DNA from: Planctomycetota bacterium
GTDB taxonomy: Bacteria > Planctomycetota > UBA1135
Direction of reading: 5' to 3'
DNA length: 64,000 nucleotides
Assembly: GCA_018671175.1 (NCBI GenBank)
Contig: JABHIE010000029.1
Location: 86,929-150,928 of the forward strand
The notes beneath the pieces are model-generated. The model ran no database searches and was not told the DNA's origin. It saw only the letters and a list, made by a program, of their open reading frames with translations. Position numbers and translations under genes: made by a program. Positions 387-61,826 of this stretch are shown one piece after another (within the stretch, counting starts at the first letter, position 1; every line of letters starts with the position of its first letter).

Positions 387-400
387 AATCAAACAGTGGC

Positions 401-4424: not shown

Positions 4425-4461
4425 TCCGCTCCCGTAGGAACTTGCAAATATATAGATTGTG

Positions 4462-5671: not shown

Positions 5672-5686
5672 CTGACCTAAATCGTC

Positions 5687-7013: not shown

Positions 7014-7015
7014 AC

Positions 7016-7594: not shown

Positions 7595-7609
7595 GCGTTC
7601 GCGTTTAAC

Positions 7610-7685: not shown

Positions 7686-7694
7686 TTTTTTTTT

Positions 7695-7724
7695 CACCGA
7701 CCTTTACGGGTCGGTGTTTTTTTT
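7695..7724 (+). terminator. rho-independent terminator after frr/tRNA-Lys
   Basis: CACCGACC (7695-7702), loop TTTACG, GGTCGGTG (7709-7716), followed by T8 (7717-7724). Confidence 0.8.
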
Positions 7725-7738
7725 GTCCTCCACCTGAG

Positions 7739-8695: not shown

Positions 8696-8712
8696 TCCCC
8701 TCCATTCTAAAG

Positions 8713-10653
8713 ATGAGTGACCTTCGCCCCGCACCTTTGGTTATCGGCACCGCCGGCCATATCGATCACGGCAAAAGTGCCTTGATTGAGGCTTTGACGG
8801 GCGATCACCCCGATCGTTGGCGCGAGGAAAAGGAGCGCGGCATCACCATGGATTTGGGCTATGCCGAAATGGCCTTTGCCGATGGCCTTGAAATTGGTTT
8901 TGTAGATGTCCCTGGCCATGAGCGTTTGGTGCGCAAGATGGTTGCTGGGGCTACAGGCATGGGTGCCGCCATGATGGCCATAGCTTGCGACGATGGTGTT
9001 ATGCCTCAAACGCGAGAGCACTTTGAGGTCTTGCAATTGCTCGGCATTTCGCGCGGCATTTTGGTCTTAACCAAGGCCGATTTAGCCGATGAAGACACGC
9101 TTGAATTAGTACGCGAAGAGGTGGTTGAGTTAGTCCAAGGCACGCCTTGGCAAGATGTCCAGATCCTAAGTGTGAGTGCCCACACGGGGGCGGGTTTGCC
9201 AGAATTGAAGCTAAGTTTGCGTGAGCTGGCTGAGAGTCATCCAAACACTGGCCAGGGGCGCAGTCTCTTCCGCATGCCCGTGCAAAGGTCTTTCGCTATG
9301 CATGGCGCAGGCACTATTGCGACTGGGGTGTGCGCTTCAGGGCAGGTCGTAGCCGGAGACACGCTCGTCGCGATGCCAGCGGGCAAAAGTAGTCGAGTGC
9401 GCCGTGTGCAAGTCCATGGTCGAGATAGCGAAACGGGCAGTGCGGGTTTACGGACGGCACTCAATTTGCCCGACCTCAACCCGCAGCATTGCGTGCGGGG
9501 CACGGTCCTTGCGGCACCTGACTCACTTGAAGCTGGTGCCTTGTTGCGGGTACATTTGCAGTGGCTTCCTGATGCTCCGCAAATTCAACATGGGGCTCAG
9601 GTTCAGATTCTGTCCGGGACATCCTCTGTTGATGGCCGCGTTTTTTTGCCGCCAGCTTTAGCTCAAAAAGGTCATTTGGGCGCTTATCCTGATGGTTTAG
9701 TGGATATCGAATTGGCTGAGCCGATTGCACTCGCGCCTCGTGATCGTTTGATTCTTCGCCGCCCCAGCCCTGCTGTAAACCTAGGGCTGGGCCATTTTCT
9801 TGCCTTTGGTTCATACCGTCTCAAAAAGCGTGATGCCGAAGAGCGGCAACAGCTTGAGCGCCTTGCCGAACACTTGGCTGACCCCGACTGCTTTTTGATT
9901 GCCCTGCTCGAAACATACGGAGCCACGCCGACTTCCACCCAGGCCTTGGCCTGCCGCATGGGCTGGCATCACGAGGCCACTTCCTCTGCACTGATGCAAG
10001 CCTGCGCACAAGGTCAAGCTCGGCAAGTCGGCGAAGATCGCTTTCTCGGGATGTCAGGCTCAGGCGCATTCGCCCAACAGGTGGCCTCCATTCTCGGTGG
10101 ATGGCGGAGAGATTGCTCACATCGTTTGCTCATCCCTATCACACATTTGCGCGACGCGCTTGGCAAAGAGGGGTATCGCTCTCTCAAAAAGGCTCCAGAT
10201 GAAGAGCTCGCCAGTTACGGATTAGAGCGTATGCCCGGCACGCATTGGCGATTGCGCGGCGTAACACTGGGCGTTGCTTTGCTCGCACGCGCGCAGGCGA
10301 TTCATGAGGTCTTAGAGCGGGCGCAGTTTCAGCCACCGTCCTTTGATGTATTAGCTGAGTCCTTTGGTGCGTTGTCTGAAGTCGAGATTTGCATCGATGT
10401 TTTGCTCGACCAGGGGTGCGTTGTCCGTCCTGAGCAGGGTTTTGTTTTAGCCGTTTCTTGCGCAGAGGCTTTGCGCAATCGGGTGGTCGAGCAACTTCAG
10501 GGCAGTGGCATGGATATCCCTGCTTTGCGCGACGAATTTCAAACCTCGCGTAAGTTTTTAATGCCCTTGCTCGAATGGCTCGATGACCGCGGCGTCACTA
10601 TGCGTCGCGCCGGAAACCGCGTTTTGCGCGATGCCACAGCGAGTTTGACTTAA
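8713..10653 (+). CDS. selB: selenocysteine-specific translation elongation factor SelB
   Basis: ORF 8653-10653. From the ATG at 8713: VIGTAGHIDHGKSALIEALTG...DRWREEKERGITMDLGY...VDVPGHERL...TKADL GTPase motifs. The long C-terminal winged-helix region ends ...RKFLMPLLEWLDDRGVTMRRAGNRVLR, typical of SelB. Confidence 0.9.
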   Translation: MSDLRPAPLVIGTAGHIDHGKSALIEALTGDHPDRWREEKERGITMDLGYAEMAFADGLEIGFVDVPGHERLVRKMVAGATGMGAAMMAIACDDGVMPQTREHFEVLQLLGISRGILVLTKADLADEDTLELVREEVVELVQGTPWQDVQILSVSAHTGAGLPELKLSLRELAESHPNTGQGRSLFRMPVQRSFAMHGAGTIATGVCASGQVVAGDTLVAMPAGKSSRVRRVQVHGRDSETGSAGLRTALNLPDLNPQHCVRGTVLAAPDSLEAGALLRVHLQWLPDAPQIQHGAQVQILSGTSSVDGRVFLPPALAQKGHLGAYPDGLVDIELAEPIALAPRDRLILRRPSPAVNLGLGHFLAFGSYRLKKRDAEERQQLERLAEHLADPDCFLIALLETYGATPTSTQALACRMGWHHEATSSALMQACAQGQARQVGEDRFLGMSGSGAFAQQVASILGGWRRDCSHRLLIPITHLRDALGKEGYRSLKKAPDEELASYGLERMPGTHWRLRGVTLGVALLARAQAIHEVLERAQFQPPSFDVLAESFGALSEVEICIDVLLDQGCVVRPEQGFVLAVSCAEALRNRVVEQLQGSGMDIPALRDEFQTSRKFLMPLLEWLDDRGVTMRRAGNRVLRDATASLT

Positions 10654-10681
10654 AATCGCAGAGCCGTTTTGCTTGAGCGTT

Positions 10682-11428
10682 TTAGCTTGAAGCGTCTAGA
10701 TGCGGGCACGGAATTTTTTCGGTAGCAAGAATTGAAGCTAGCGTTTCTTCTGCAATTTGAACGCGCTTCGGCGTGCTGATTTCGCACCAAGAGCCTGAGT
10801 GAATCATGGCACGGACAGGTTGATCAGGCAGCGTCTTTAGCAAGCCATGTCGAATCAGACATGAAGGCGCATCATTTGGGGCCTCACTTATGCTGGCCAG
10901 CCATTTTTCAGAAGGGCGGCAAATGCCTGTATAGACGCCCACATCATGGGTTTGGCTTGGTGCACCACTCTTGCGCAGTGATGTAATTTGCTGTTTTTCG
11001 TCATAGCGAAACCCGCCAAAGATTTCTAAATCACTACTAGAGTGCAACACTAATGTTGGCTCTGTGCAGGTCAAGATTTTATGCCACTGGAAATCGGTAT
11101 ACATCTTGGCGTTGAGTACAACATCGGGCAACGACCCATTTTGCTGCGTTGCCTCGAGCAGAGTGCCGCCCGTCCCGAGAAGTGTTTCTTCGTGGAGCCA
11201 GCGTAATTCAAGTTGAGGCGGGCAGAAGCGCTTGGCTTCTCGTTGAATTTGCTCAGTGTGGTGGTGGAGGTTTATCCAAGCGCGAGTCACTCCGGATTGA
11301 GCTAGGCGCGGCAATAAAAATGCGAGCGGGGAAAGGTCGTTGACCTTGACGCACGCCTTAGGGATTGATTTAGAAATCTCACCCAGACGAGTGGCTAAAC
11401 CACCAGCTAGTAGAAGCGCAGTTTTCAT
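10682..11428 (-). CDS. nucleotidyltransferase, MurU-like (sugar-1-phosphate nucleotidylyltransferase)
   Basis: ORF 10682-11491. From the ATG at 11428: MKTALLLAGGLATRLGEISKSIPKACVKV..., the NTP-transferase G-rich loop. ATGA overlap with the upstream kinase-like gene. Confidence 0.6.
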   Translation of the reverse strand: MKTALLLAGGLATRLGEISKSIPKACVKVNDLSPLAFLLPRLAQSGVTRAWINLHHHTEQIQREAKRFCPPQLELRWLHEETLLGTGGTLLEATQQNGSLPDVVLNAKMYTDFQWHKILTCTEPTLVLHSSSDLEIFGGFRYDEKQQITSLRKSGAPSQTHDVGVYTGICRPSEKWLASISEAPNDAPSCLIRHGLLKTLPDQPVRAMIHSGSWCEISTPKRVQIAEETLASILATEKIPCPHLDASS

Positions 11429-12324
11429 GGTGTGATTGCGCGCAGTAAGTCGCTGGTGGGGTCTTGCTCGGCAAGTAAAGTCATGGCGCAAGAACGGGCG
11501 CGTTTTTCAGCAATGGCATATTCGCCCCGACCTTGATTCAAGAGCCAGCCAAATGTGCCAAGTGCTTTAAGTACCCGCTGGATGGCCGTTGCCTGAAAAT
11601 GTCTTTGCGCCACCGCAGGCTCAAGCTCAAATTTAGCGCCCAAAGTCGGGATGTAGTCGAGCAAGAATGCACGAGTTTCTTGGTTGAGCTCAATATAAGC
11701 ATCAGTCAGCAGAGAGGCTAAATCATAGAAAAGGGGGCCTGTTCGCAAATCTTGATGGTCAATAATCGCAAGGCCAGAATCAGGCAAGAGAATGTTGCGA
11801 CAATGGAAATCTCGGTGTTGCAAAGCCTGCGGCCCTGCAATGGCCTGTCGCGCGATGGCGTCACAGCTCTCTGCGAAAGTGTCGTTTACCCCAAGGAATC
11901 GAACCAAATACTCTTGTCGAAATTGTCGCAACTCTTTTTGAAAGAGGCTCGTATCGAGCGCCCATTTCGCATTAGGAATGTTTGACGGTAAATCTGCAAA
12001 CGCAAACCGCGACCAAGTGCGCATGAGCTCTTGATAGCAACCCAGATTTGCTCGATGCGCAAGATGAATGTCGCCTAGGTCTTCGACTAGATAGGCGCCA
12101 TCAGTCGATGCTCCGATTGCAGGCACACGCACACCCAAAGAGGCCAACCAAGTCGTGATTTGAATAGGTGCGTCTTGTGGAGATCGCACAAAGAGCCATG
12201 GGCAAGAACCACTCTCAATACGGAAATAGCGCCTTGGAGAGGCCTCTGCCGTGAGCTCGGTCGTGGCGATGTCTCCTGCCAAGAAGTCATGAAGCAAAGT
12301 CGTGGTAAGGCTCATGCTTGCCAA
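11425..12324 (-). CDS. aminoglycoside-phosphotransferase-fold kinase, AmgK-like (anomeric sugar kinase)
   Basis: APH/choline-kinase motifs HRDFHCRNILL and IIDHQDLRTGPLFYDLASLL. Pairing with a MurU-like gene matches the AmgK-MurU MurNAc salvage pair. Confidence 0.55.
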   Translation of the reverse strand: MASMSLTTTLLHDFLAGDIATTELTAEASPRRYFRIESGSCPWLFVRSPQDAPIQITTWLASLGVRVPAIGASTDGAYLVEDLGDIHLAHRANLGCYQELMRTWSRFAFADLPSNIPNAKWALDTSLFQKELRQFRQEYLVRFLGVNDTFAESCDAIARQAIAGPQALQHRDFHCRNILLPDSGLAIIDHQDLRTGPLFYDLASLLTDAYIELNQETRAFLLDYIPTLGAKFELEPAVAQRHFQATAIQRVLKALGTFGWLLNQGRGEYAIAEKRARSCAMTLLAEQDPTSDLLRAITP

Positions 12325-13145
12325 ACACTGCAGCTTTGAACGACGGATTGAACAAGCTCACGAGGCGTTTTTTGCCCTCGGCTGTAGTCTCGAATTTCCC
12401 AGGCGGCCGTCCCTGAAAAAGCGCTTGTGCCAAGATGGGTGAAAGCTTCATCAAAGTCAATCGTGCCCTGCCCAGGGTGTAAATGTGCATCACTCTCGCC
12501 ATCATTGTCGTGCAGATGCAAATGCTTCACGCGAGTGCCGGCGCGCTTGGCCTCTGCGACAACGGAGTCGGTGAGGTGTGCGTGGCCAAAATCAAGGCAA
12601 ATGCCGGCACTGCGGCCAGGGTCGAGTTTGTCTAAAAGTGCGGCCAAGGCCGTGCAGCTCGTGCCATCAGACAATATGTTTTCGGGGAGTAAAACGATGT
12701 CGTGCTCGCGCGCACATTGCAGAAGCGCCTCAAGTGCCTGTTGCGCAAATCCGGAAGTCGGGTGCGACCAATCATCATTTGGCCAGCCAAGGTGCAGGAC
12801 AGCACCCCAAGCCCCAAGCGCTGCAGCCGCAGCCACTCCAGCGCACATTCCTTCAAGCGCGGTCGCTCGTTCCGTCGCATCGGAGTCAATCAGCGACCAT
12901 CGCTCGCCCATTTCGATTAAACGCTGAACCGAGGGGTAAAGCGGTAGATGCACGGTTTCGGCATGAAGGCCATGCAAGGCTAGGTCTTGTCGCAAGTCAG
13001 CCATGGCAGCCAAATCACGCCACCGCACATGCGGCTCAGCTAGCCAAATCTCTAAACCCGACCAAGGGCTTTCGGCAAGCGCCGCAAGAGCCTGTTCGTT
13101 TAACTCGTGATAAACGAGCAGGTGAGTCGAGAGAGTGAAGCGCAT
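12312..13145 (-). CDS. sugar phosphate isomerase/epimerase (xylose-isomerase-like TIM barrel)
   Basis: ORF 12312-13181, ATG at 13145 preferred. ...LEIWL...HLPL...VLHLGW...LLPEN...CLDFGHAHL...HLHLHDNDG..D.HL.PG.G.IDF is the typical family pattern. Overlaps the next gene by 13 nt. Confidence 0.7.
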   Translation of the reverse strand: MRFTLSTHLLVYHELNEQALAALAESPWSGLEIWLAEPHVRWRDLAAMADLRQDLALHGLHAETVHLPLYPSVQRLIEMGERWSLIDSDATERATALEGMCAGVAAAAALGAWGAVLHLGWPNDDWSHPTSGFAQQALEALLQCAREHDIVLLPENILSDGTSCTALAALLDKLDPGRSAGICLDFGHAHLTDSVVAEAKRAGTRVKHLHLHDNDGESDAHLHPGQGTIDFDEAFTHLGTSAFSGTAAWEIRDYSRGQKTPRELVQSVVQSCSVWQA

Positions 13146-13165
13146 TGGCGTTATCCTAGAGCGCC

Positions 13166-14677
13166 ATGCTTGCCACTGCACTCTTCGTTTCTCTTCTGAC
13201 CCTGATTCCCATCCAAGAAGATGAAACGGTCAAAGATTTCAAAAAGTTTTTTCGGAAGTCGAAAGACCCCGTAGAGCGCGTTGAGTTGATTTTGTCTCTC
13301 GAAGATGTCGAGTCGCCCGATGTCGCCAAAGTGATGTTGCCCCTTCTTAAAGGCAAAGATCCCGCTGAAGCGCAAGCGGCTCTCCGCATTATTTCGCAGC
13401 TAAAAGAGCCCACATCTCGAGTGCCGCTTTTACCCATTATCGAAGAAGGCAAGCCCGAGGCATCTTGTGCGGCGATTGCAGAAGCTGTTGCGATGGGTGG
13501 CTGGAAAGAATTCCAACCCTTGCTCTTGCCTCAAATTACGCATAAATCGCCCGATGTAAGGCTCTGGGTGGTCACGGCTCTCGGGCGGCTTGGCGATCCA
13601 CTTTCAATTGAAGTCGTTGCGCGACTGGCTATGACCGATGCCGAGCCCATGGTTCGAGTGGCATCGGTTGATTCCTTGGCCTTAATCGGTCATGAAAACA
13701 AAAGTGTTGCCGGGCCTGCTCTGGTGGCTGCCTTGCAAGACAAGCATTTGTCGGTCGCAACGGCCGCTTGCTTGGCTTTGCGCAGGGTGCGAGTGATTGA
13801 AGCCATCCCGCCTTTGCTTGATTTGCGTGAGTTCGGTGAGGGGCGCATCCTTGAAATGGTCTACCCGACTTTGATCGATTTGACCGACCTCAATTTGCGC
13901 GACGATCCGGCAACTTGGCGCTCTTGGTGGGAGAGGGCGCAGGCTAATGGCTATGAGTTGCCGAGTGATGCTGAAGTCCTGAAGCGCCGTGCCGCTCGCG
14001 CCAAGGCTAATGAGGCTTACCGCTTTCCAACGAATAGTTCCTCCTTTGTCGGAGTACCGACAACGAGTCGTCAAATTGTTTTTGTGATCGATGTCTCGGG
14101 GTCGATGGAAGACAATGTGATTGACAAAGATTCTTTTCGAGAACGAGGTTTTGAGCACTTCCGTAAATTAGATATCGTCCGCGAAGAGTTGCGCCGCACG
14201 ATCGATGGTCTTGATGAAGGCGTGTTTTTCAATATCATTTCCTTTGCCAGTGATATGCACCCCTGGAAGAAAAAAATGACTAAGGCTAATGCGCTAGCTC
14301 GAAAGAGTGCAATCGCTTGGGTCGACAAATTGAAGCCACTCGGTGGCAAGGGCTCAAAAGATAAAGGGCGTACTAATACTTATGGTGCGCTGCTCGCTGG
14401 GTTAGGCGTAAAAGATAGCCGCAATTACAAAGGGCCTGTTTCAGGTTCGGTGAGCAAGGCCATCGCAGGCGCACCCGACACACTTTTCTTCCTATCAGAC
14501 GGCCGCCCAACCGTGGGCGAGTTGGTCGAGGTGGAAGACATCCGTGCTTCAATTACTCATATCAATCAATTTCGCCGAACCGTGATTCATACGATTGGTA
14601 TTGGCGAGTTTCAAAAGAGTTTTTTGGTGAATCTATCGCGCGAAAACAATGGCGTTTTCGTCGATTTGGGTCGCTAA
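13166..14677 (+). CDS. secreted HEAT-repeat + von Willebrand factor A domain protein
   Basis: N-terminal hydrophobic segment; HEAT-like repeats (SPDVRLWVVTALGRLGDP, AEPMVRVASVDSLALIG); vWA MIDAS motif IVFVIDVSGSM and ...FFLSDGRPT. Confidence 0.8.
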   Translation: MLATALFVSLLTLIPIQEDETVKDFKKFFRKSKDPVERVELILSLEDVESPDVAKVMLPLLKGKDPAEAQAALRIISQLKEPTSRVPLLPIIEEGKPEASCAAIAEAVAMGGWKEFQPLLLPQITHKSPDVRLWVVTALGRLGDPLSIEVVARLAMTDAEPMVRVASVDSLALIGHENKSVAGPALVAALQDKHLSVATAACLALRRVRVIEAIPPLLDLREFGEGRILEMVYPTLIDLTDLNLRDDPATWRSWWERAQANGYELPSDAEVLKRRAARAKANEAYRFPTNSSSFVGVPTTSRQIVFVIDVSGSMEDNVIDKDSFRERGFEHFRKLDIVREELRRTIDGLDEGVFFNIISFASDMHPWKKKMTKANALARKSAIAWVDKLKPLGGKGSKDKGRTNTYGALLAGLGVKDSRNYKGPVSGSVSKAIAGAPDTLFFLSDGRPTVGELVEVEDIRASITHINQFRRTVIHTIGIGEFQKSFLVNLSRENNGVFVDLGR

Positions 14678-50255: not shown

Positions 50256-51221
50256 CTAGCGATTGCGGCTCTTTGCCAGCCTTTCCAGCTCAGGCAGTGC
50301 GCTAAGAATCAAACGACCGACACGCCCGAGTGATTCTGCGCTGACATGTGTCATGTCGTCATCGCGCGTGTGCCACCAGCGGTGCCCAGGCCCGTATTGG
50401 AAGTCAATCAAATTGATGCAAGGCACTTTGGCACGGCGGAAATGAATATGGTCATCTTTGATTTCGCGTCGCCCAACAAAGAGCCGAGGGTCGCCGAGTT
50501 TGTGTGCCGTGCGCTCCATTAAGGCGACCAACCATTTGGCCGAGGTCGATTCAAGGTAGAGGTTCAAATCGATGTCGCCAACCATGTCAAGCAAGACAAA
50601 GGCTTTGATGTCACGAATGCCACCCGTTTTTTTCAACATCTCAACAGCGTGCCGACTACCAAAGGTGGAGTTTGTGAAGTCGTCCCACAGATTAGGGGGG
50701 AAGCGCTCTTCGCCGTCAAAAAAGGCCAGTACAAGGGTGTGCCCTTCGCGCGGGCCAGCACCACCAAGTTGCCGCGCTAGTTCAACAAGGACGGCCGTGG
50801 ATGAGCCAGAATCATTTGCGCCAACAAAGCCCGGCAAATCGTAAGTATCGTAATGCCCAGCGAGCCAAATCTCGCCCGGTAAAGTGCCCTTGCGTTTGGC
50901 AAAAACATTTGCGCCTTGGGCGACCTTTTTGCGCCGAGCACCAATAGGTGGCGTCGCTTCAAAAGAATCGGTTGTAACTTCCCATCCGTGTGGCTCGAGT
51001 TGAGCTTTTAGCCAATCGCGCGTTAGCTGCGCGCCCTTTGTGCCAATGCGTCTTGGGCCAATTTCTTCGCAAAGATACGCCAGGTCTTGAAAGGCGCGCG
51101 CCTCTTGGAAGGCGGAGGCTAAAGGAGCCGTTGATGATGATTTATTGTCGTCGGATTGCGGCTGGCTACAAGCGCATAGGGTGACAATGAAGAAGAGACT
51201 GACTAGAAGCAAACGATGCAT
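50256..51221 (-). CDS. M28-family metallopeptidase (aminopeptidase / glutaminyl-cyclase-like) lipoprotein
   Basis: Lipobox LCACS. Metal ligand blocks HYDT, GANDSGSSTAVLVELAR, FFDGEE, LLDMVG, WWHTRDD. Confidence 0.8.
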   Translation of the reverse strand: MHRLLLVSLFFIVTLCACSQPQSDDNKSSSTAPLASAFQEARAFQDLAYLCEEIGPRRIGTKGAQLTRDWLKAQLEPHGWEVTTDSFEATPPIGARRKKVAQGANVFAKRKGTLPGEIWLAGHYDTYDLPGFVGANDSGSSTAVLVELARQLGGAGPREGHTLVLAFFDGEERFPPNLWDDFTNSTFGSRHAVEMLKKTGGIRDIKAFVLLDMVGDIDLNLYLESTSAKWLVALMERTAHKLGDPRLFVGRREIKDDHIHFRRAKVPCINLIDFQYGPGHRWWHTRDDDMTHVSAESLGRVGRLILSALPELERLAKSRNR

Positions 51222-53176
51222 TATGAATTGCGGCTGGCGCGGCCGGTGCGGAAGAGAAGGAGGAGAACCAAGCCGTATGCCAGCAAAGTGTAGAGGTCGA
51301 TACTCGCTGGAGCATCAAACAAGGGCTCGTTTTTTAATGCTGACCAGCCCCATGCATTTGCGCCGTAAGACGAGAACCAGAGTGCTCCAATCCAGGCCAA
51401 GCCTGTGAGCGCCTCGCCAGCAATCAGGCCAGAAGCCATTAATACACCTTGCTCGGCGTTGCGCGACCCAAAGAATTTATCAGCCAGCCAGCGCAAGAAA
51501 CCACCTGCGAAAACCCCAGCACTTAGCCCAAATGGCAAATAGAGGCCCACGGCGAAGGGTAAGCTCGGTGCGCCCAACAGCTCGACAACGAGTGCGAGTG
51601 CCATCCCCATCATGAGGAGGCCCCAGGGGAGGTTGCCTTGAAATACACCTTCGACGAGGGTTTTCATGACATTGGCTTGTGGGGCAAGGAACTCTGGATT
51701 GGCTGCTGCGGCGACACCTGGGTCAGCGCCTACGAGATTAAGCACGCTTCCGCTTTCGCCGGGCAGCGTCAAAATAAACGGGATGATGGCCGCAAGGACG
51801 ATAGCCGTCATAACCGTGCCGATAAGCTCGCCGATTTGTTGTCGCCTAGGCGTAGCACCAAGGAGATAACCTGTTTTGAGGTCTTGGCTGGTGTCGCCCG
51901 CCATGCAAGCGGCGATGCAAACGACCGCGCCAACCGTGATGGTTTGGACCATGCCTGCCATCCCTGCGGCGCCGTGTGCTGACAAAATGAGAGCGGTACC
52001 GAGCAGGCTGGTGATGGTCATGCCTGAAACGGGGTTGGATGAGCCGCCGACTAAGCCAACGATTTGGCTGCTGACGGCCACGAAAATACCGGAAAACAAA
52101 ACCACTGCTGCTGCTGCCCATCCGGATTCGACAATGCCTGTCGCCCAAAGGCCACCTGCGCAAACTAACCCGATGCCGATAGAGGCTTTCCAGGGCAAGT
52201 CAGTGTCTGTGCGGGGTGTGAGCGGCTTGGAAACAGTTGTTGTGTCACTTGATGACTGTGCTTTGCGTGCAACACCTGCTTTGAGTGAAACAGCAAATCG
52301 CCAAAGGGTTTTGAAGAGTGAAATTAAACCGCCAAAAGTGACTGCGCCCGCACCGATAAAGCGGATGTACTTGTCCCAGAGTGCATCGGGGTCAAGCTCA
52401 CTCAGAGGTGTGCTCGCTGGGGGCAGGATGCCTGATAGATGATCGCCGCTATAACCCAAAAGTGGAATGATGACTAACCAACCCACGGCAGCACCTGCCA
52501 ACATCATCGAGGCCACTCGAATACCCAAAATGTATCCAACGCCCGCGAGGGACGGGTAAGCATCAATGCTCAATGCGGTGCGAAACCCAGAGCCAATCAC
52601 AAAAGGAGCGTGAAGACTGCTTTTGATGAAGCCAAGCACCTTAAAGCCCGCCGCATAAAGAACACCGATTCCTAGACCGAGGAAAACTTTTGTAGCAGCG
52701 TCTCCGCCTGACTCACCGGCTTTGAGAACTTCAGCACAGGCTGTGCCTTCTGGGTAGGGGAGGTTTTCATGCTCTTGAACAATCAAAAACTTGCGCAACG
52801 GAATCATGAAAAGCACGCCAAGGGTGCCGCCCAAGACGGTGGTCAATAAGACATCCGTGAAGCTGGGCGCGTGCCCCCAGAGGTAAAGCGCGGGCAAAGT
52901 GAAAATAATTCCGGCGGCGAGAGATTCACCTGCAGAACCCACCGTTTGCGACATGTTGTTTTCGAGGATGGTGCCGGTGCGCATGGCGCGGAAGACGGCC
53001 ATCGAGACCACGGCAACGGGGATACTTGCGGAAACGGTCAATCCGACCTTTAAACCCACATATGCGTTAGCTGCCGCAAAAAGCGAACCAAGGACGAGAC
53101 CGAGGAAAACAGCCTTGAACGAGAGCTCGGCGGGGGAATCGTCGGGTGAAATGTGGGGGCGGAACGGTTTTGTCAT
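51221..53176 (-). CDS. OPT-family oligopeptide transporter
   Basis: ORF 51221-53215, ATG 53176 preferred. ~650 aa, more than 14 hydrophobic helices. The N-terminal ELSFKAVFLGLVLGSLFAAANAYVGLKVGLTVSASIP is characteristic of bacterial OPT proteins. Confidence 0.8.
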   Translation of the reverse strand: MTKPFRPHISPDDSPAELSFKAVFLGLVLGSLFAAANAYVGLKVGLTVSASIPVAVVSMAVFRAMRTGTILENNMSQTVGSAGESLAAGIIFTLPALYLWGHAPSFTDVLLTTVLGGTLGVLFMIPLRKFLIVQEHENLPYPEGTACAEVLKAGESGGDAATKVFLGLGIGVLYAAGFKVLGFIKSSLHAPFVIGSGFRTALSIDAYPSLAGVGYILGIRVASMMLAGAAVGWLVIIPLLGYSGDHLSGILPPASTPLSELDPDALWDKYIRFIGAGAVTFGGLISLFKTLWRFAVSLKAGVARKAQSSSDTTTVSKPLTPRTDTDLPWKASIGIGLVCAGGLWATGIVESGWAAAAVVLFSGIFVAVSSQIVGLVGGSSNPVSGMTITSLLGTALILSAHGAAGMAGMVQTITVGAVVCIAACMAGDTSQDLKTGYLLGATPRRQQIGELIGTVMTAIVLAAIIPFILTLPGESGSVLNLVGADPGVAAAANPEFLAPQANVMKTLVEGVFQGNLPWGLLMMGMALALVVELLGAPSLPFAVGLYLPFGLSAGVFAGGFLRWLADKFFGSRNAEQGVLMASGLIAGEALTGLAWIGALWFSSYGANAWGWSALKNEPLFDAPASIDLYTLLAYGLVLLLLFRTGRASRNS

Positions 53177-53244
53177 GCGTGCACAGGGTCGAGCTGCGAA
53201 AAGTGCTCTAGGCATTGTGCCGTGGCGTGTTGTAGGATTCTTCC

Positions 53245-53946
53245 GTGAAACTGTCCGTCGTCATCCCGGTCTTCAACGAGCAAGAAACCCTCCTCGAAAT
53301 TTTGGGGCGTGTCCGCGCTACACCTTTTGAAAAGGAAATCATCTTGATTGATGATTGCTCTGTTGACAACACGCGTGAAATTCTCAAAACCCTCGAAGGC
53401 GATGAAGATCTCACTATCTTGTACCACGATGTTAATCAGGGCAAGGGCGCGGCATTACGCACGGGCTTCCAAGCCGCCACGGGCGATGTAGTTTTGATTC
53501 AAGATGCTGACCTTGAGTATGACCCAGCAGAGTATTCCATCTTGCTTGAGCCGATTGAACGCGGCCTCGCTGATGTTGTTTTTGGGTCGCGCTTTAAAGG
53601 CTCCCGCATGACACGCGTGCATTTGTATTGGCACCAAATGGCCAATAACTTTTTGACTTTGATTTCTAATATGTTCACAAACCTAAACCTTACCGATATG
53701 GAGACTTGCTACAAAGTCTTCAAACGCGAGGTCTTGGCTGGTATTGAAATTAAATCAAACCGATTTGGTTTTGAGCCTGAAATCACGGCTAAAGTGGCTC
53801 GCAAGCGACTTAACGGTAAGCGAGTCCGTATTTATGAAGTGCCGATTAGTTACTACGGTCGTGATTATGCTGACGGTAAAAAAATCGGATGGCGAGATGG
53901 TGTGGCCGCACTCTGGCACATCGTACATTTCAATCTCTTTGTTTAG
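53245..53946 (+). CDS. family 2 glycosyltransferase (polyprenyl-phosphate sugar synthase-like)
   Basis: GTG start. [27 protein letters not shown] (DxD), ...GSRF... 233 aa, soluble DPM1/GtrB-like layout. Confidence 0.85.
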
Positions 53947-53955
53947 GCGGTTGAT

Positions 53956-54954
53956 TTGCCGAGAGCTTTCCGCGCGGCATTTACATTAGTCGTTTTTATT
54001 ACGGCTTTCTGGACGACATCGGCCATCGTGCGCGCGTTCGTTCCCGAGCAAATGAAGTTTGCTTGGTTGCTCGAAATCGAAGACGACATGGAAGTCATTT
54101 TTGTTGGCTCTAGCCATGTGCTGAGGCAAATGGACCCTGCCGTTTTGCATCATGAATTGTCAAAAGCTGGGCTTGATTACGACGCCTTTAATTTGGGCTA
54201 CCCAGGTGCGCATTTTGCCGAAACTACTTATTGGGCGGATCGCATCTTAGACCGCAAGGTGCCGAATCTGAAGGTGTTGGTTCTTGAAGCCGCTACTTTA
54301 GAGGGGGGGATGAACCCTGAAAACGATTTGTCAAGGCGACAAATTGAGTGGCACGATGAGCGGCGGATGGCATCCGTATTGCGCGTCTCTGCCGATTTTG
54401 ATTCTTTTGGGCGGCATTTTGCACATTATTTTCATCGACTAGGCAATTTAGATCGAGGGCCGGCTGCATTTGAGGCTTTGTTCTTTGGTGCATCTCGCGA
54501 TTTTGAGGGTAAGGCGGGTTTGGGCGTCAATCAAACTGGCTTCCGACCTTTTGTTGGCAACGGACAATCCAAATCAGAAAAGCGTCGGCATAAAGAATTT
54601 CTGGCCGATGCTGATCCATTTGAGGGTAAACGCCGCAGTGTCGTTGATGCGCCGTGGGATATCCCTGCTCACTTAGCACTAGAATCTGAAGTTGCTCGAC
54701 TGGAAGCCAAGGCCGAAGCCAATGGTGTACAGATTATTTGGTTGATTCACCCTGGCATGACTCCAGCCGAGGGCTGGAAAGATTTGGCTCGGCGTGAGGT
54801 GGCTTCGCGAGTGGTCGATTTCAGCGACTCAACTTTATCTTCCAGGTGGTATCAGCAAAATTTGCGGTTTGATTTTGACCATTTGAATGCAGTCGGCGCG
54901 AGCGAAATGACGCAGGAACTTGCCGGGGCCGTATTGCAACTTCCAACTTTATAG
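53956..54954 (+). CDS. membrane-anchored SGNH/DltD-like protein (putative O-acyltransferase partner of MBOAT)
   Basis: TTG start 10 nt after the GT2 stop. N-terminal TM; block-I-like VIFVGSSHV and block-V-like FDFDHLNAVGA. Paralog of 55026-55972. Confidence 0.55.
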   Translation: MPRAFRAAFTLVVFITAFWTTSAIVRAFVPEQMKFAWLLEIEDDMEVIFVGSSHVLRQMDPAVLHHELSKAGLDYDAFNLGYPGAHFAETTYWADRILDRKVPNLKVLVLEAATLEGGMNPENDLSRRQIEWHDERRMASVLRVSADFDSFGRHFAHYFHRLGNLDRGPAAFEALFFGASRDFEGKAGLGVNQTGFRPFVGNGQSKSEKRRHKEFLADADPFEGKRRSVVDAPWDIPAHLALESEVARLEAKAEANGVQIIWLIHPGMTPAEGWKDLARREVASRVVDFSDSTLSSRWYQQNLRFDFDHLNAVGASEMTQELAGAVLQLPTL

Positions 54955-55025
54955 TGAGCCGTCGGGGGTTTTTCTCCGCCTTGCCCGTCGGTTTGGCAGA
55001 GGTAGAATTTATATAGATTTGCGTC

Positions 55026-55972
55026 ATGAAAGTTCGCCTCTTTTCGCTCCTTGCTTTCTTCCTTGCTTTTGGCTTGGTGGCTACAGTCGTGCGTAGCATT
55101 CTCCCCGAAAGTGGTAAATATGCATGGTATTTACGGCAAGGCCAGTCTTCAGTAGAAAGCGACAAGGTGGTTTTTATTGGCTCAAGTCACATTTATCGAC
55201 AGCTTGACCCGGACCAATTTGAAAAAGAAATTGCGTCTCTTGGGGGTGAATTACAGGCTTTTAATCTTGGTTTGCGTGGTGCACATTTATCCGAAACGAC
55301 ATTGCAAAGCGCCAGGTCGATTGGCACGACTTGACTCGTAGCTTAGATTGTGGCTTTGCTTTGTGGCAGCATTGGCTGCGCCGCCCTTCGCCTGCTTTTC
55401 TGCTCAAGCAGGTCATTGATGCCGTGCGGCATACGCGTTTTTTTGCGAAACGATTCACGAATGCGGGGGCCGCTAGTGATTTCTTGGCAATGCTCGGGCG
55501 TAGCACTCAAATGCCGATTGCCGGGCATCAGGAAATCGTCGGTCATCAAGGTCGTGGGTTTTCCCCCTTGCAGGGCCGCTCATTTGATGAGCAAGCACTC
55601 AGTCGATTTGCATCGCTCCAGACAAAACGCCGCAAATCTGAAATGCTGGCAACGGCCATGCCAGCATCAGCGAAATCACCGTCTGCGCCGATTGAGCTTG
55701 AGCGAGTCGTGGCTCGACTCGAGGCATCTGCGGCACAAAAAGGAGTATCCATTTTATGGTTCATTCATGCAGGCGCCGGTGAGAGTGATTGGCACTCTCT
55801 TCAGCAGCAAGGTGTAATTCAGCACCTTATCGATTTCTCTGATCCCACACTTTCCTCCGAGTGGTATGGCGAAGAATTCCGCTATGATTATGGGCACTTG
55901 AACTGGGAAGGTGCAAAGAAGATGACATCCATCGTGGCACGCAAAATTCATTCTCTCGATTCTTCTAACTGA
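55026..55972 (+). pseudogene. disrupted paralog of the SGNH/DltD-like gene (internal deletion plus frameshift)
   Basis: ORF 55026-55334 aligns with the N-terminus of the upstream gene (VVFIGSSHIYRQLDP...AFNLGLRGAHLSETT). Homology resumes in another frame at about 55307 (KRQVDWHD... vs RRQIEWHDE...) and runs through ORF 55331-55972 (...YDYGHLNWEGAKKM). About 35 codons (YWADRIL...PENDLS) are missing. Confidence 0.55.
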
Positions 55973-57375
55973 TGCTTTTTACGGAATTCCGTTTCCTACC
56001 GTTTTTCGTAATGGTGTTTGCCATACACTGGCTCCTGAGGGGGCCTCGATTGCGCAAAACTTGGCTGCTTCTTGCGAGTTACGCCTTTTACGCAGCCTGG
56101 GATTGGCGCTTTTTGTCGCTCATCTGGGCCTCCACTTTAGTCGATTATGTCGCGGGTTTGCGCATTTACGCAAGCAATGGCAAGGCAAAGGTTTGGTGGC
56201 TGCGCGCGTCTCTATTCGCCAATTTGGGCCTGCTCGGGTTTTTTAAATACTGGGGATTCTTCGTCGACTCAGGTGCCGAGTTTTTGTCATGGATGGGCAT
56301 CGACATGGCTGGCTCTTCGCTTGAAGTGATTCTCCCTGTAGGCATTTCATTTTTTACTTTTCAGACGATGTCGTACTCACTCGACATCTATCGTGGCAAG
56401 CTTAAGCCCACTCGTTCGCCACTAGATCTGGCGCTTTTTGTCGGTTTCTTTCCACAGCTCGTTGCTGGCCCAATCGTCCGTGCGGCTGATTTTTTACCGC
56501 AACTCAGCGCACCTCGTTTTTGGGCGGATGTCCGAGTTCGATCGGCCCTGATTCTCTTCACGGCCGGTTTTATTAAAAAGGCCTGTATCTCTGACCAACT
56601 TTCACCCTTTGTAGATCAGTATTTCGCCAATCCTGATTTATATACAGTCGGTGCCGCCTGGCTGGCTGTTGTCGGTTATGCCGTGCAGATTTATTGCGAT
56701 TTTTCCGGATATTCCGATATGGCCATTGCTCTTGCCGCTTTGCTGGGGTATCGATTGTGTCTTAATTTTAACTTCCCTTATCTTGCGAGCGATATCCGCG
56801 ATTTTTGGCGGCGCTGGCATATCAGTTTGTCGACTTGGCTGCGCGACTACCTCTACATTTCCTTGGGTGGCAATCGCGCGGGTTCGTTCAAGACCTATCG
56901 TAATTTAATGTTGACGATGTTGCTCGGTGGGTTGTGGCACGGTGCTGCCTGGACATTTGTCATTTGGGGTGCACTTCATGGTGTTGCCTTGTCTGTGCAC
57001 CGCCTCTGGGAATCACGCCGCGCGCCCGGCCAAGAACCTCATGCTTTGATGCGCGCCTTTTCACCCATCCTCACTTTTTGGTTCGTTTGCTTTTGTTGGG
57101 TTTTCTTCCGTGCTGGCGATTTTGAAACGGCAACGACTGTTTTGCGTGCATTTGTTTGGCTAGATGCTGACGGCATGCAAACTCTACCAATGATGATGGC
57201 CTGGGTCATGATTGGCCTTTTTGTTGCTCATCGCATCGCGGCAAAGGGCGCGTTTGTCAAACGCCTTGAGTCACTTCCAGAGCCTGTGTTCGCAGCTGGT
57301 TTAGGCGCGGTATTTGCCATTGCGCTGGCCTTTACGAGTGCCGATTACCAACCGTTTATTTACTTCCAGTTTTAG
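55972..57375 (+). CDS. MBOAT-family membrane-bound O-acyltransferase (AlgI/DltB/PatA-like)
   Basis: Multi-pass membrane protein with ...FWRRWHISLSTWLRDYLYISLGGNR... (conserved His block) and ...LGGLWHGAAW. TGATG overlap with the preceding ORF. Confidence 0.9.
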   Translation: MLFTEFRFLPFFVMVFAIHWLLRGPRLRKTWLLLASYAFYAAWDWRFLSLIWASTLVDYVAGLRIYASNGKAKVWWLRASLFANLGLLGFFKYWGFFVDSGAEFLSWMGIDMAGSSLEVILPVGISFFTFQTMSYSLDIYRGKLKPTRSPLDLALFVGFFPQLVAGPIVRAADFLPQLSAPRFWADVRVRSALILFTAGFIKKACISDQLSPFVDQYFANPDLYTVGAAWLAVVGYAVQIYCDFSGYSDMAIALAALLGYRLCLNFNFPYLASDIRDFWRRWHISLSTWLRDYLYISLGGNRAGSFKTYRNLMLTMLLGGLWHGAAWTFVIWGALHGVALSVHRLWESRRAPGQEPHALMRAFSPILTFWFVCFCWVFFRAGDFETATTVLRAFVWLDADGMQTLPMMMAWVMIGLFVAHRIAAKGAFVKRLESLPEPVFAAGLGAVFAIALAFTSADYQPFIYFQF

Positions 57376-58220
57376 TGCAAAGTTGGCTTGTTGTTAGGGC
57401 TGGCCTGCGCAACATCGGTAGCCACAAACCGTGCAACACGCAAGATGGGGCAGGCTTGAGTCACAACGGCATTTAGGCCTGCTTGCCGCAAGCCAGCACG
57501 GGCAGCAGCAAGTGCCAATTCAGGAGTGTTGTTGTGGCGGCTCAAATGAGCCAAGCCTAGCTCTCGCAAACTTGCAGGTGCGTGTTGCGCCAAAAAACCA
57601 GCCGCCTGCGCATTCGACAAGTGACCACTCGGCCCCGCAACACGGTTTTGCAAATCGCGTGGGTAGGGCCCGTTGCGCAGCATGTTGATGTCATGATTAA
57701 ACTCTAAAACGAGCGCACTTACACCTTGCAAGGTTGAGCCTATTAAGGCATCCGTTGAGCCAAGGTCGGTAAAGTAAGCAGCGCGTTGGCCGTTTAAATC
57801 AAAAACGAAGCCAAAGCAAGGGTCGCCATCGTGCGGCACACGGATGGGGGTGATCTCAAGTGGGCCAACAGAAAAACTCAAGCGGTCAGCGATTGGCCGC
57901 ACCTCGACTTGCCGCCTCGCAACCTCACCCGCGGAAGTCTTTTGGTTATGACCCATTGCATCAGGGTGCGCGTAAAGCGGCGCCTTAGCTCTAGCAGCGG
58001 TCGCGACGATATTGCCAGAGTGGTCGCCATGATGATGCGTGAGCAAGACAGCATCAACATGCGTGAAAAGAAAACCAGCATCTTGAGCAAGGTTGCGAGC
58101 ATTGCGTTGCGCGATGCCGCAATCAAGCGCAATCACGACTCGCTCTTGGCCATCATTGGCATGAACGAGTGCGCAGTTGCCGGATGAGCCGCTCGCGAGG
58201 GTCAAGATTTCCAGAGTCAT
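57372..58220 (-). CDS. MBL-fold metallo-hydrolase
   Basis: ...AVLLTHHHGDHSGN... (HxHxDH) plus downstream His/Asp ligands. 282 aa. Confidence 0.85.
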   Translation of the reverse strand: MTLEILTLASGSSGNCALVHANDGQERVVIALDCGIAQRNARNLAQDAGFLFTHVDAVLLTHHHGDHSGNIVATAARAKAPLYAHPDAMGHNQKTSAGEVARRQVEVRPIADRLSFSVGPLEITPIRVPHDGDPCFGFVFDLNGQRAAYFTDLGSTDALIGSTLQGVSALVLEFNHDINMLRNGPYPRDLQNRVAGPSGHLSNAQAAGFLAQHAPASLRELGLAHLSRHNNTPELALAAARAGLRQAGLNAVVTQACPILRVARFVATDVAQASPNNKPTLH

Positions 58221-59654: not shown

Positions 59655-61826
59655 TTATGGGTGCGTTGCCCAGCGATCTCGCCTTGCCTTTTCTGATGGC
59701 GCAAGCCCAGAGAGTGGCGCATCACCTGCGGCCTCTTCGCCTTCGAGTTGCACTCGTAAGAGCCAAAGCGAATAGAGCGCCTCGGGGCCAAGTGAGTTGG
59801 GCGGTGTCAGCCAGTAAGGTGTGAGTGCTTCACGCTGTTGGCCAAGCGCGGTTTGTAAGAGTGCATCGGCTGCAGCGGTCGCGACTTCGGGGTCAGTCGA
59901 GGCGAGCCAATTTAGAGCTAGCTCGGCGGCAGAGAGTCCACCGCATGCACCCAAAGCTTCGAGTGCGCGGACGCGCGTGCTTTCGTCTTGAATTGACGGT
60001 TTCAACACCGTCAGGATGCTTTGCTGATTTGTCGAAATCCATCTTGAAAGAGGCTTGCCAATCCAGGACATGGTTTGCAAAACATGATTGCGCACATAGG
60101 AGTCTTTCGCAGAGAGGTGCTCTATTAAAACAGAGTATGTGCGAGCTGGGAGGCCATGCCAAACCGTGCGCGCATCGTCGACAGGTCGCAGCGGTTGTGA
60201 AGCAAAATTAGTGCAAAGTCGCTCTAACTCAAGGCGCAAGGCGGGGCCTAGTTCGGGGCTGCCTAAGCCATCCTTGCGGAGGCTTCGGTATTGCTTCCAT
60301 TGCTCGATGTCGAGGTGAAGCTTTTCCCATTGCGCCTCAAATAAATCGGGTGCATCAGGAAGTCGCGCCAACAATGAAAAAGCGGCTTCTTTCGCTTCGA
60401 GGATGGACGCATCGTTTTGCTCCTCACTGCTCAAGATGCTAGAAATCGCAATCAAACCCTGCGCGCTGCCAAGGCGATATAGCGATTCAGCCATGTAAAC
60501 ATTAGATGGCCAGTCTTTTTCGTATTTTAAGCGCAAAGTGAGCCGTGGTAATGCCGCTGGCGTTGCGCGTGGAATAAGTTGCCGGTAAGCCTCGCGCCGC
60601 AAGTCAGTTGGGAAATCCCGCCATCTTTCGCCAATCGTAAGCAGTAATTCATTCACCTCCGAATCGGGCTGTGCAGCCAGCTCATCCAGAGCGCTTGCTC
60701 CAACTCTTCCGCCCATCAGAATGGCATCTAGCCAGTCGGCAACATGCTCAATCTCTTGCGCATCAGGCCGGGTGTACGGGGCGGCCTGCGTCATCTCGTC
60801 GCCGGTATTGTCTGGCGCAGTCAAATCAGAAGAAACCTTGAGTGTTCGCTCGTCTAGGTCTTCGAGTGGAAGTCGAGCGATTTCGAAACTATCGGCATCC
60901 GCAAGAAACGGCTGCGTGCGATAAAGAAGGCGTGCCTCACCCAAAGTGGTGTTTGCAGGTCTCTCAAGGCCAAAGACTCGTGTTTCGCCGGGCTGCAATT
61001 GAGAGTTGCTTAAGCTCACCTCATCTCGGTAAGGGTCGCGCATACGGTGGACGAGCTCCCAATCACCCCAGTCGCCATGAGTCTGCCACCTAACCTGAAT
61101 GTCAGCCGCACGAGATCGTTCGTCAGTGGGGAAGTTGTGCGCACAACCACTATTGCGGATGACAAGTTGAGTCTGCCCATCAGAAGTGCGGTTGGCGCTT
61201 AATTCAACGGCCTTTTTGAGAGCCTCTGCATCATGAGCCGCCGGGAAGCCATGGTGTCGACCCTTGCGACCGCCCTGTCGCCATGCATCGACCATATGGC
61301 AGTGCAGACAGTTTTGCCCTTTCAAATCAGTGTCTTGGGTTGCCTGCCATTGCACGATTGTTTTGTGTTGGTTGTGGCATGCGGCACAGTGATTGACATC
61401 AATCATGCGCGGCTCGAATACGGGTTGGCAAGGCGCGTTGTTTTGAGGCCTTGGGTTGCCCGTCGCGATTCGGCCACTTGCGGTTGCATGGCAGGAAAGG
61501 CAGCTCACGCCATCTGTGCGAGAAGTGACTCGCGCTAAAACTCGCGCGGCTGGCTCGAAGTTCAAAACAGGCTGCGGCGCGTGACAAGCAATGCACTCTT
61601 GATTGCGATACTCTTGGCTTAAACGACGGACTTCGGGGTTTTCATAAGCAAGTGCATGGTGCGAGGTCGCCCATTCTGCGGCTACAGCCGGGTGGCATTC
61701 GGCGCATTGCTCAGCTGTAAACATGGGGCCAATTTGATCGACCTCGGGCTCTTGCTGGGGCATGAAGATGGCAAGCAAAACAGCGCATCCGCCGGCAACT
61801 AGAAAAAAAGCTAAGAAGCGTTTCAT
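59655..61826 (-). CDS. pentaheme c-type cytochrome fused to a C-terminal HEAT-repeat domain
   Basis: Signal anchor. Five CxxCH motifs in the first ~180 aa (CAECH, CIACH, CLSCH, CAACH, CLHCH). The C-terminal ~380 aa is helical with HEAT-like repeats (DSYVRNHVLQTMSWIG, DESTRVRALEALGACG, TDPEVATAAADALL). Confidence 0.8.
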   Translation of the reverse strand: MKRFLAFFLVAGGCAVLLAIFMPQQEPEVDQIGPMFTAEQCAECHPAVAAEWATSHHALAYENPEVRRLSQEYRNQECIACHAPQPVLNFEPAARVLARVTSRTDGVSCLSCHATASGRIATGNPRPQNNAPCQPVFEPRMIDVNHCAACHNQHKTIVQWQATQDTDLKGQNCLHCHMVDAWRQGGRKGRHHGFPAAHDAEALKKAVELSANRTSDGQTQLVIRNSGCAHNFPTDERSRAADIQVRWQTHGDWGDWELVHRMRDPYRDEVSLSNSQLQPGETRVFGLERPANTTLGEARLLYRTQPFLADADSFEIARLPLEDLDERTLKVSSDLTAPDNTGDEMTQAAPYTRPDAQEIEHVADWLDAILMGGRVGASALDELAAQPDSEVNELLLTIGERWRDFPTDLRREAYRQLIPRATPAALPRLTLRLKYEKDWPSNVYMAESLYRLGSAQGLIAISSILSSEEQNDASILEAKEAAFSLLARLPDAPDLFEAQWEKLHLDIEQWKQYRSLRKDGLGSPELGPALRLELERLCTNFASQPLRPVDDARTVWHGLPARTYSVLIEHLSAKDSYVRNHVLQTMSWIGKPLSRWISTNQQSILTVLKPSIQDESTRVRALEALGACGGLSAAELALNWLASTDPEVATAAADALLQTALGQQREALTPYWLTPPNSLGPEALYSLWLLRVQLEGEEAAGDAPLSGLAPSEKARRDRWATHP

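Follow-up and report, generated by a model that had tools for sequence, protein, structure and literature searches.

Several bacterial acylation systems combine a membrane-bound O-acyltransferase (MBOAT) with one or more SGNH-like partner proteins, among them PatA/PatB of Neisseria and Campylobacter, AlgI/AlgJ/AlgX/AlgF, WssH/WssI and DltB/DltD. In bacterial MBOATs that have SGNH partners but lack the DltX microprotein, a hexapeptide of the form FxYxxF, termed the “acyl-shuttle,” is carried on two extra helices (PMC12148441). PatA auto-acetylates the tyrosine of this motif from acetyl-CoA in a histidine-dependent reaction, and PatB uses the acetyl-Tyr hexapeptide to acetylate glycan, in contrast to the Dlt system, where the shuttle resides on the separate DltX (PMC12148441). 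Here, we describe a related gene cluster in a marine planctomycete, located on a 64-kb stretch of contig JABHIE010000029.1 (assembly GCA_018671175.1) that is referred to below as the window. According to the list of open reading frames (ORFs) and the sequence, four co-oriented coding regions occupy positions 53245-57375 of its plus strand: a family 2 glycosyltransferase (GT2), two paralogous candidate partner genes, and an MBOAT gene. The core of this cluster is probably a two-component O-acyltransferase module that pairs an MBOAT with an SGNH protein, of the same kind as PatA/PatB, AlgI/AlgJ/AlgX and WssH/WssI. Four defining features of this class were found: the MBOAT histidine, a terminal FxYxxF motif, a partner with predicted SGNH fold, and genetic linkage of the two components.

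An MBOAT with a fused acyl-shuttle motif

The MBOAT of the cluster, labeled “AlgI” by the Joint Genome Institute (JGI), carries a WHISL block whose histidine, His283 (56818-56820), is conserved in relatives. Its best match among curated models is DltB (TIGR04091), with 161.7 bits against a cutoff of 375 and covering residues 118-379 only, and the DltB structures 8jem and 6bug match residues 120-350 with an E-value of about 1e-26. Hence, the MBOAT core is homologous to DltB, and two additional hydrophobic helices (residues 401-423 and 434-458) lie beyond the aligned region. The protein ends in the hexapeptide FIYFQF, which fits the FxYxxF acyl-shuttle motif (FIYANF in PatA of N. gonorrhoeae) and in which, by analogy with PatA, Tyr464 is the putative acyl-accepting residue. 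The full motif was present in seven of eight complete partner-linked MBOATs, with the variants FIYFQF, FIYFRF, FLYFRF and FVYQGF, and its F-x-Y core in all eight; the single exception, from a clostridial locus (L016), reads FMYAMY and thus retains the tyrosine while the final phenylalanine is changed to tyrosine. The MBOAT shares 48-64% identity with the MBOATs found beside partner homologues in other phyla. Catalytic histidine, two extra C-terminal helices and terminal motif together give it the architecture of PatA. An earlier note, made from the sequence of the window alone, had recognized the logic of an MBOAT with an extracytoplasmic SGNH-like partner; this assignment is sharpened by the FIYFQF terminus and by the predicted fold of the partner, which resembles DltD and PatB.

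A partner protein with a predicted DltD-like fold

The first partner paralog begins with a hydrophobic helix (about residues 3-28), followed by a domain that contains a GSSH block (G51-S52-S53-H54, 54106-54117) and a D306-F-D-H309-LN..GA block. Hydropathy analysis placed such a helix ahead of the domain in 63 of 72 homologues, and the protein would be expected to adopt the signal-anchor topology of DltD, with an extracytoplasmic catalytic domain. Among the 72 homologues, G51, S53, G195 and H309 are invariant, and S52, N79, G81, E89, R128, W132, H133, H154, D306 and G314 are conserved in at least 90%.

The family to which these proteins belong is large. When 1.84 billion cluster representatives (clusters at 50% identity) were scanned exhaustively by HMMER, hits were obtained in 2,322 clusters at E ≤ 1e-3 and 1,256 at E ≤ 1e-10, with proteins of typically 340-370 aa, and members were found in Planctomycetota, Verrucomicrobiota, Cyanobacteria and Firmicutes. 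The family becomes visible only by this exhaustive approach: word-indexed protein searches returned 2, 3 and 16 proteins with paralog 1, five paralogs and the 72 homologues as queries, respectively. A metagenome scan with the partner alignment yielded 4 loci. Wherever the source database names a homologue, the name is “hypothetical protein.” Some of them (P0152, P0155, P0156 and P0163) bear the precomputed Pfam accession PF27429.1, which is absent from the Pfam copy that was scanned; the family may therefore have been catalogued recently already.

No Pfam or NCBIfam model reached its threshold for the partner paralogs, and the same held for Pfam with the 72 homologues. The sole curated signal for paralog 1 came from DUF1574 (PF07611; E = 0.07, 12.9 bits against a gathering threshold of 29.1) and spans the region of blocks I and II. 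In distant homologues this signal improves to E-values down to 2.7e-6, with 27.4 bits for the best relative, and on sequence grounds it appears to reflect a distant relationship, not membership. DUF1574 is itself an uncharacterized family of the SGNH clan, for which neither function nor structure is known (PMC9487903). The DltD family model PF04914 gave no Pfam match at E ≤ 10 for any of five paralogs, and the models for PatB (DUF459), AlgX/AlgJ (PF16822) and DHHW/PatB1 gave none in the Pfam scans of the paralogs and the 72 homologues; membership of the AlgX, PatB and DHHW families was rejected for this reason. A search of PDB sequences with family profiles produced nothing significant, the hits being an SGNH esterase (E = 0.6) and OatA-type acetyltransferases (E about 1). 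Thus, the 332-residue protein stays below threshold for DltD, AlgX/AlgJ and DUF1574, with DUF1574 the nearest, and the earlier impression that the partners belong to no characterized family is borne out.

The predicted structure is more informative. An AlphaFold2 model of paralog 1 (m218373625c3f), built from a 14-sequence alignment, reached a pLDDT of 80 and a pTM of 0.81, and was used in place of a poor earlier model from 5 sequences (pLDDT 61). When this model was compared with the PDB by Foldseek, the nine best matches were all DltD, from four entries (6pfx, 3bma, 7dxm and 6o93; E-values 5e-5 to 1e-3, probability 1.0), followed by PatB (7tjb and 8tlb) and then by acetylxylan esterases and TesA. 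Ser53 is placed where strand beta-1 meets the following helix, Gly81 behind beta-2, and D306-x-x-H309 in the loop that leads to the last helix. In the model, the conserved residues thus fall where SGNH blocks are expected, and Ser53, Asp306 and His309 are proposed as the catalytic triad. The SGNH-like fold suggested by the earlier note for the 332-residue protein is accordingly the one that the structure prediction returns.

The partner shares features with each of the described systems without coinciding with any. Like PatB, it is a separate protein with predicted SGNH fold and serine nucleophile that occurs without a carrier protein, often in a stand-alone gene pair; unlike PatB, it lies outside the PatB family by sequence, has a predicted fold nearer to DltD, and possesses an N-terminal membrane helix and a helical insert of about 110 residues. 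With DltD it shares the closest predicted fold, the N-terminal anchor and the S...DxxH order of serine, aspartate and histidine, but it has no DltD Pfam match. The use of one or more SGNH-like partners is also seen in the Alg and Wss systems, and the paralogous pair AlgJ/AlgX, one of which is membrane-anchored, recalls the tandem paralogs described here. In contrast to these systems, the present partners show no AlgX-family Pfam match, their catalytic order is the classical S...DxxH, and neither AlgF nor a polymer synthase operon surrounds the module. Furthermore, the second paralog is dispensable in nature, as documented by a deletion allele (see below).

Linkage of partner and MBOAT genes

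Comparison with other genomes and metagenomes placed an MBOAT gene within 8 kb of the partner gene in all 12 distinct loci, and directly adjacent to it in nine, although this sample is small and was not randomly drawn. The partner is followed directly by the MBOAT in a planctomycete (L014), a Pirellulales-like bacterium (L017), two metagenomes (L018 and L020) and a Planktothrix-like cyanobacterium (L022). The reverse order, MBOAT then partner, occurs in Butyrivibrio (L023, with two pairs) and in two metagenomes (L024 and L025), and in one further metagenome (L019) the two genes are adjacent but convergent. A distance of 3-8 kb separates them in Chthoniobacteraceae (L015), Clostridia (L016) and a metagenome (L021). 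Direct adjacency also characterizes the loci of a sister species (L001 type) discussed below. Co-conservation with the MBOAT gene, which the earlier interpretation presupposed, therefore extends to every relative compared.

The usual neighbors of the pair are unrelated housekeeping genes such as gyrA, pgpA, D-Ala-D-Ala dipeptidase and peptidase genes (L014, L017, L019 and L020), whereas in two distant cases (L022 and L024) the pair resides inside GT2-rich glycan-biosynthesis clusters. In L022 (positions 1-7553 of metagenome contig MIS_10021119), it comes after five GT2 genes, and the 90% identity cluster of its partner protein includes Planktothrix agardhii proteins. In this cyanobacterial setting the module thus forms part of a glycan-synthesis cluster, whereas the planctomycete pairs stand alone. 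In Butyrivibrio fibrisolvens (L023, AUJA01000060.1, positions 320-5993), two same-strand pairs of an MBOAT and an unannotated protein (355 aa in the first, the 330-aa partner in the second) are parted by a small opposite-strand gene, the module having been duplicated as a unit.

Gene organization and the adjacent glycosyltransferase

The features of the cluster and of its surroundings are listed in Table 1. The GT2, the 332-residue partner and the MBOAT are intact and co-oriented, as originally reported. Paralog 1 starts with a TTG codon 9 nt past the GT2 stop codon, and a TGATG overlap (55970-55974), likewise as first described, joins the stop codon of the paralog 2 frame to the start codon of the MBOAT. 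Scans for promoters and terminators detected nothing beyond the expectation from shuffled sequences. As the paralogs are 35-40% identical to each other and a second species has the same genes in synteny, this arrangement is not a chance pattern.

Table 1. Positions of the gene cluster, its parts and other features in the 64-kb window
Feature	Position	Strand	Basis or remark
tRNA gene	7610-7682	+	Rfam
Three co-oriented genes (NTP_transferase, APH-family kinase, AP_endonuc_2/xylose-isomerase-like)	10682-13181	-	Synteny with L027
OPT-family transporter gene	51221-53215	-	Divergent neighbor, upstream edge of cluster
GT2 glycosyltransferase, 233 aa	53245-53946	+	PF00535, E = 1e-35
Partner paralog 1, DltD-like, 332 aa, intact	53956-54954	+	AlphaFold2 model, Foldseek, conserved residues
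Partner paralog 2, pseudogene in the window	55026-55972	+	ORF list, alignment to the intact 348-aa allele of L008
N-terminal fragment of paralog 2, 102 aa (GSSH at 55179-55190)	55026-55334	+	ORF list
Junction of the 100-bp deletion in paralog 2	55294-55302	+	Alignment to near-identical contigs
C-terminal fragment of paralog 2, other frame from 55304, listed ORF 213 aa (DYGH at 55886-55897)	55331-55972	+	ORF list
MBOAT acyltransferase, 467 aa	55972-57375	+	PF03062, E = 5e-30
C-terminal hexapeptide of the MBOAT (F462-I-Y464-F-Q-F467)	57355-57372	+	Sequence; FxYxxF motif of PMC12148441
MBL-fold hydrolase gene	57372-58220	-	Convergent neighbor, downstream edge of cluster
723-aa protein with CxxCH motifs	59655-61826	-	

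The GT2 is a soluble enzyme with a DxD motif, as the earlier note had stated: besides its Pfam assignment, it has a DAD motif and no hydrophobic segment, the maximum 19-residue Kyte-Doolittle mean being 0.98. Its closest sequence matches in the PDB are DPMS (5mlz, 4e-19), ArnC (9bhc and 8vxh, about 4e-15) and GtrB (5ekp, 4e-9), and its top NCBIfam matches are AglJ, ArnC and PpgS, all far below their cutoffs. Based on these similarities, it appears to correspond to the catalytic domain of polyprenyl-phosphate sugar synthases and not to a polymer synthase. The GT2 is probably co-transcribed with the module in this planctomycete. Its association with the module is confined to this species and the sister species, in which it is 91% identical, and no GT2 homologue was found in loci L014-L021 (planctomycete, verrucomicrobial, clostridial and metagenome sequences). 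Consequently, it stands outside the conserved module.

Proposed mechanism and acyl donor

In the proposed mechanism, a cytoplasmic thioester, acetyl-CoA being the most likely one, would supply the MBOAT with an acyl group, and His283 would act as the catalytic base that loads it onto Tyr464 of the enzyme's own extracytoplasmic C-terminal FIYFQF peptide. The shuttle peptide would then swing to the membrane-anchored DltD-fold partner and acylate Ser53 of the Ser53/Asp306/His309 triad, from which the acyl group may be passed to a hydroxyl group of an envelope polymer encoded outside the cluster.

The earlier note considered the acyl donor not identifiable from the window. In the annotated part of the window, which covers about 56 kb (from about 8 to 64 kb), neither AMP-ligase nor carrier protein genes were found. 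As, in addition, the shuttle is fused to the MBOAT, and the class with fused motif uses acyl-CoA, an acyl-CoA donor, most simply acetyl-CoA, is indicated. The earlier statement is weakened accordingly.

Several points weigh against this assignment. The choice of acetyl as the acyl group follows from analogy with PatA only, and transferase rather than esterase activity is deduced from the genetic context of a partner that passes no curated family threshold. TM-scores of the model to DltD are low (0.34-0.43, with root-mean-square deviations of 10-14 Å), so that the match rests on E-value and probability and the likeness is one at the level of the fold, with no close superposition, and the confidence of the model is mixed over residues 117-237. 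The positive-inside rule leaves the orientation of the partner unsettled, as lysine plus arginine amount to 2.2 before and 2.1 after the helix. Finally, as the start codon of the MBOAT is coupled to the frame of paralog 2, one may speculate that the deletion in the latter impairs MBOAT expression and that the module as a whole is decaying in this strain.

Candidate targets and alternative activities

Two targets are under consideration for the MBOAT-partner module, neither of them established. The stand-alone pairs would fit a constitutive polymer such as peptidoglycan, and the local operon would fit a glycan decorated by way of the polyprenyl-phosphate sugar from the GT2.

The module might acylate the product of the adjacent GT2, i.e., a polyprenyl-phosphate-linked sugar at the outer face of the membrane or a sugar passed on from there to an envelope glycan. 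This is a possibility to be entertained with reserve. The 9-nt spacing on the same strand is kept in the sister species, the products of polyprenyl-phosphate sugar synthases function on the periplasmic side, the expected place of action of the SGNH partner, and distant family members reside in GT2-rich glycan clusters (L022 and L024). However, no GT2 lies beside the pair in L014-L021, and the annotated part of the window contains neither a flippase nor a GT-C transferase that could use a polyprenyl-phosphate sugar; polysaccharide operons and DltA/DltC-like genes are equally missing from it. Moreover, the 91% conservation of the GT2 is far above that of the partners, which suggests an independent housekeeping role. 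Of the earlier proposal that the target is a glycan made with the adjacent GT2, the conserved close spacing remains, while the linkage is confined to two species and no polymer synthase is present.

Rather unlikely, in turn, is a role equivalent to that of PatA/PatB, in which the pair would O-acetylate peptidoglycan or some other constitutive polymer of the envelope. Such a target would explain why the pair is usually found alone among housekeeping genes, and the flanks in L014, L017, L019 and L020 are indeed of this type and not polysaccharide operons. PatB as second-best structural match and the PatA-like architecture of the MBOAT point in the same direction. On the other hand, the partner shows no sequence-level membership of the PatB family, other family members reside in glycan clusters, and nothing in the window identifies the acceptor. 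In the PatA/PatB/Ape cluster, Ape1 is the esterase, and no Ape-type esterase gene adjoins the genes described here.

It is improbable that the DltD-like proteins are themselves esterases (de-O-acylases), or that the paralogs divide transfer and removal between them. The SGNH fold with its Ser-His-Asp triad is common to hydrolases and transferases, acetylxylan esterases and TesA do appear lower in the list of structural matches, and the divergence of the paralogs (35-40% identity) leaves room for different activities. Yet the structures matched best, DltD and PatB, are transferases, and all paralogs have the same conserved blocks. Most loci contain a single partner beside the MBOAT, to which the transferase role must then fall.

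A Dlt-like aminoacylation (D-alanylation) for which carrier and ligase are encoded elsewhere in the genome is very improbable, even though DltB is the best curated match of the MBOAT and DltD the best fold match of the partner. The DltB score falls far short of the equivalog cutoff, dltA, dltC and dltX are absent from the cluster and from the annotated part of the window, and the shuttle is fused to the MBOAT on two extra helices instead of residing on a separate DltX as in Dlt (PMC12148441). The fusion also accounts for the lack of a DltX microprotein. For these reasons, a true Dlt system was rejected. To our knowledge, no teichoic acid has been reported in planctomycetes, the host lineage. 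One distant family member is located in a more Dlt-like setting: in L025 (positions 694-10036), an AMP-binding enzyme, a GNAT acetyltransferase, an 80-aa ORF, an MBOAT, the partner, a methyltransferase, a 332-aa ORF and a second MBOAT are clustered. The 80-aa ORF has the size of a possible carrier protein, and this locus may represent a carrier-dependent, Dlt-like version of the module.

Deletion and polymorphism of the second paralog

The earlier note described two tandem paralogs of about 330 aa. Both motif blocks of the second copy are indeed present, but its GSSH and DYGHLNWEGA blocks sit in different frames of a region whose length, 947 nt, is not a multiple of three, and the gene is a deletion/frameshift pseudogene in the window. 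The case illustrates that reading motifs without checking the frame can overlook pseudogenes. Alignment with near-identical contigs from several JGI metagenomes (more than 99.8% identical to the window) revealed that exactly 100 bp are missing at 55301/55302. The deletion allele is present in the window, L007 and L010, while L008, L009 and L012, from the same population, have an intact gene of 348 aa. The lost codons 93-126 (YFAHRVLQDDQNQLRWLVVEAFPMYGGVSRENDF) are the aligned equivalent of strand beta-3 of paralog 1 and include two conserved Glu/Asn positions, and the resulting frame shift leads to a translation stop at 55332-55334. In the intact allele, the segment is flanked by a direct repeat, AAACGAC (7 nt, exact), which in sequence terms has the appearance of a signature of slippage or microhomology deletion.

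There is hardly any chance that the split arose in sequencing or assembly or reflects a programmed frameshift with production of the full protein: although repeats can collapse in metagenome assembly and both catalytic blocks survive across the two fragments, the loss comprises 100 bp and not a 1-nt slip and removes the beta-3 equivalent, the only repeat involved is with 7 nt too short to mislead an assembler, and the identical junction recurs in three independent assemblies whose single-nucleotide backgrounds differ (4-15 mismatches per 11-17 kb) while three others are intact. The recurrence makes an artefact very unlikely and the missing 100 nt exclude a programmed frameshift, so that both were ruled out. 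Paralog 2 is thus dead in the strain represented by the window, and the deletion is polymorphic in the population. It follows that paralog 1 alone can serve the MBOAT.

In the sister species, an uncultured Planctomycetales known from a metagenome-assembled genome (MAG; GCA_964584805.1), the cluster is fully syntenic with 75-91% protein identity. Three tandem partner paralogs of 343, 354 and 322 aa lie between GT2 and MBOAT (L001, positions 9048-11077; also L002-L006 and L013). Their genes overlap by 4 and 1 nt, and the third has GSSL instead of GSSH. The number of partner copies is therefore three in the sister species, two in this species and one in more distant relatives, with one intact copy in the present strain; judging from the sequences, the partner gene appears to have been duplicated in this lineage. 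Between the two species, paralog 2 is the fastest-evolving gene of the cluster, with an amino acid identity of 52%, while paralog 1 retains 77%, the MBOAT 85% and the GT2 91%; the comparison rests on amino acid identity and nonsynonymous divergence, as synonymous divergence has reached saturation (values from 1.6 to above 3). Four NCBI MAGs of this species have two accession numbers between paralog 1 and the MBOAT (e.g., MBT4028590 and MBT4028587), and this numbering alone would fit a split, deleted paralog 2 there as well.

Implications

The combination of an MBOAT with fused shuttle and a DltD-fold partner from an unannotated family is noteworthy, though it involves no new mechanism. For genes so far labeled just “AlgI-like MBOAT” and “hypothetical protein,” a concrete route can now be put forward, in which the acyl group would pass under the action of His283 to Tyr464, on to Ser53 and finally to the polymer. 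At the same time, a large unannotated SGNH-clan family from several phyla is flagged as the probable transferase partner of fused-shuttle MBOATs.

Taking these observations together, we tentatively suggest a wider reading, which we regard as possible but not likely in its entirety. The SGNH-clan family of about 2,300 clusters might serve a subfamily of fused-shuttle MBOATs as its dedicated partner with DltD fold and might constitute a fourth structural type beside PatB, AlgX/WssI and DHHW. In planctomycetes, it could act on an envelope component for which no acylation is known so far, e.g., peptidoglycan or a sugar decoration derived from polyprenyl phosphate, and the variation in copies and pseudogenes (three, two or one functional) could tune surface acylation in populations, for example under phage pressure. 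The envelope chemistry of Planctomycetota is poorly known, and O-acylation would alter the susceptibility to lysozyme, autolysins and phages. In this respect, the polymorphic 100-bp deletion is a natural knockout that could link genotype to surface chemistry.

Surroundings of the cluster

Housekeeping genes characterize the annotated part of the window, among them those for SelB, Rho, IMPDH, GuaA, HisRS, YidC, TrmE, NrdR and SMC. At the downstream edge of the cluster, the MBOAT stop codon shares 4 nt (57372-57375) with the 3' end of the convergent MBL-fold gene, and the same arrangement exists in the sister species. Relatives of the MBL-fold protein show a faint to weak Pfam match to Anti-Pycsar_Apyc1. 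The 723-aa protein encoded further downstream has an N-terminal signal or anchor sequence, several CxxCH heme-binding motifs and a C-terminal HEAT-repeat region; its relatives match the Pfam family Cytochrome_C554, and its gene adjoins those of an ABC transporter ATPase and permease.

The tRNA gene is the sole Rfam match at gathering threshold in the window. Near the other end of the window from the cluster, three co-oriented minus-strand genes were recognized by synteny with L027; they encode a protein with a weak NTP_transferase match, a kinase of the APH family, and a protein similar to AP_endonuc_2/xylose isomerase. The first two are reminiscent of the MurU/AmgK pair of cell-wall sugar recycling.

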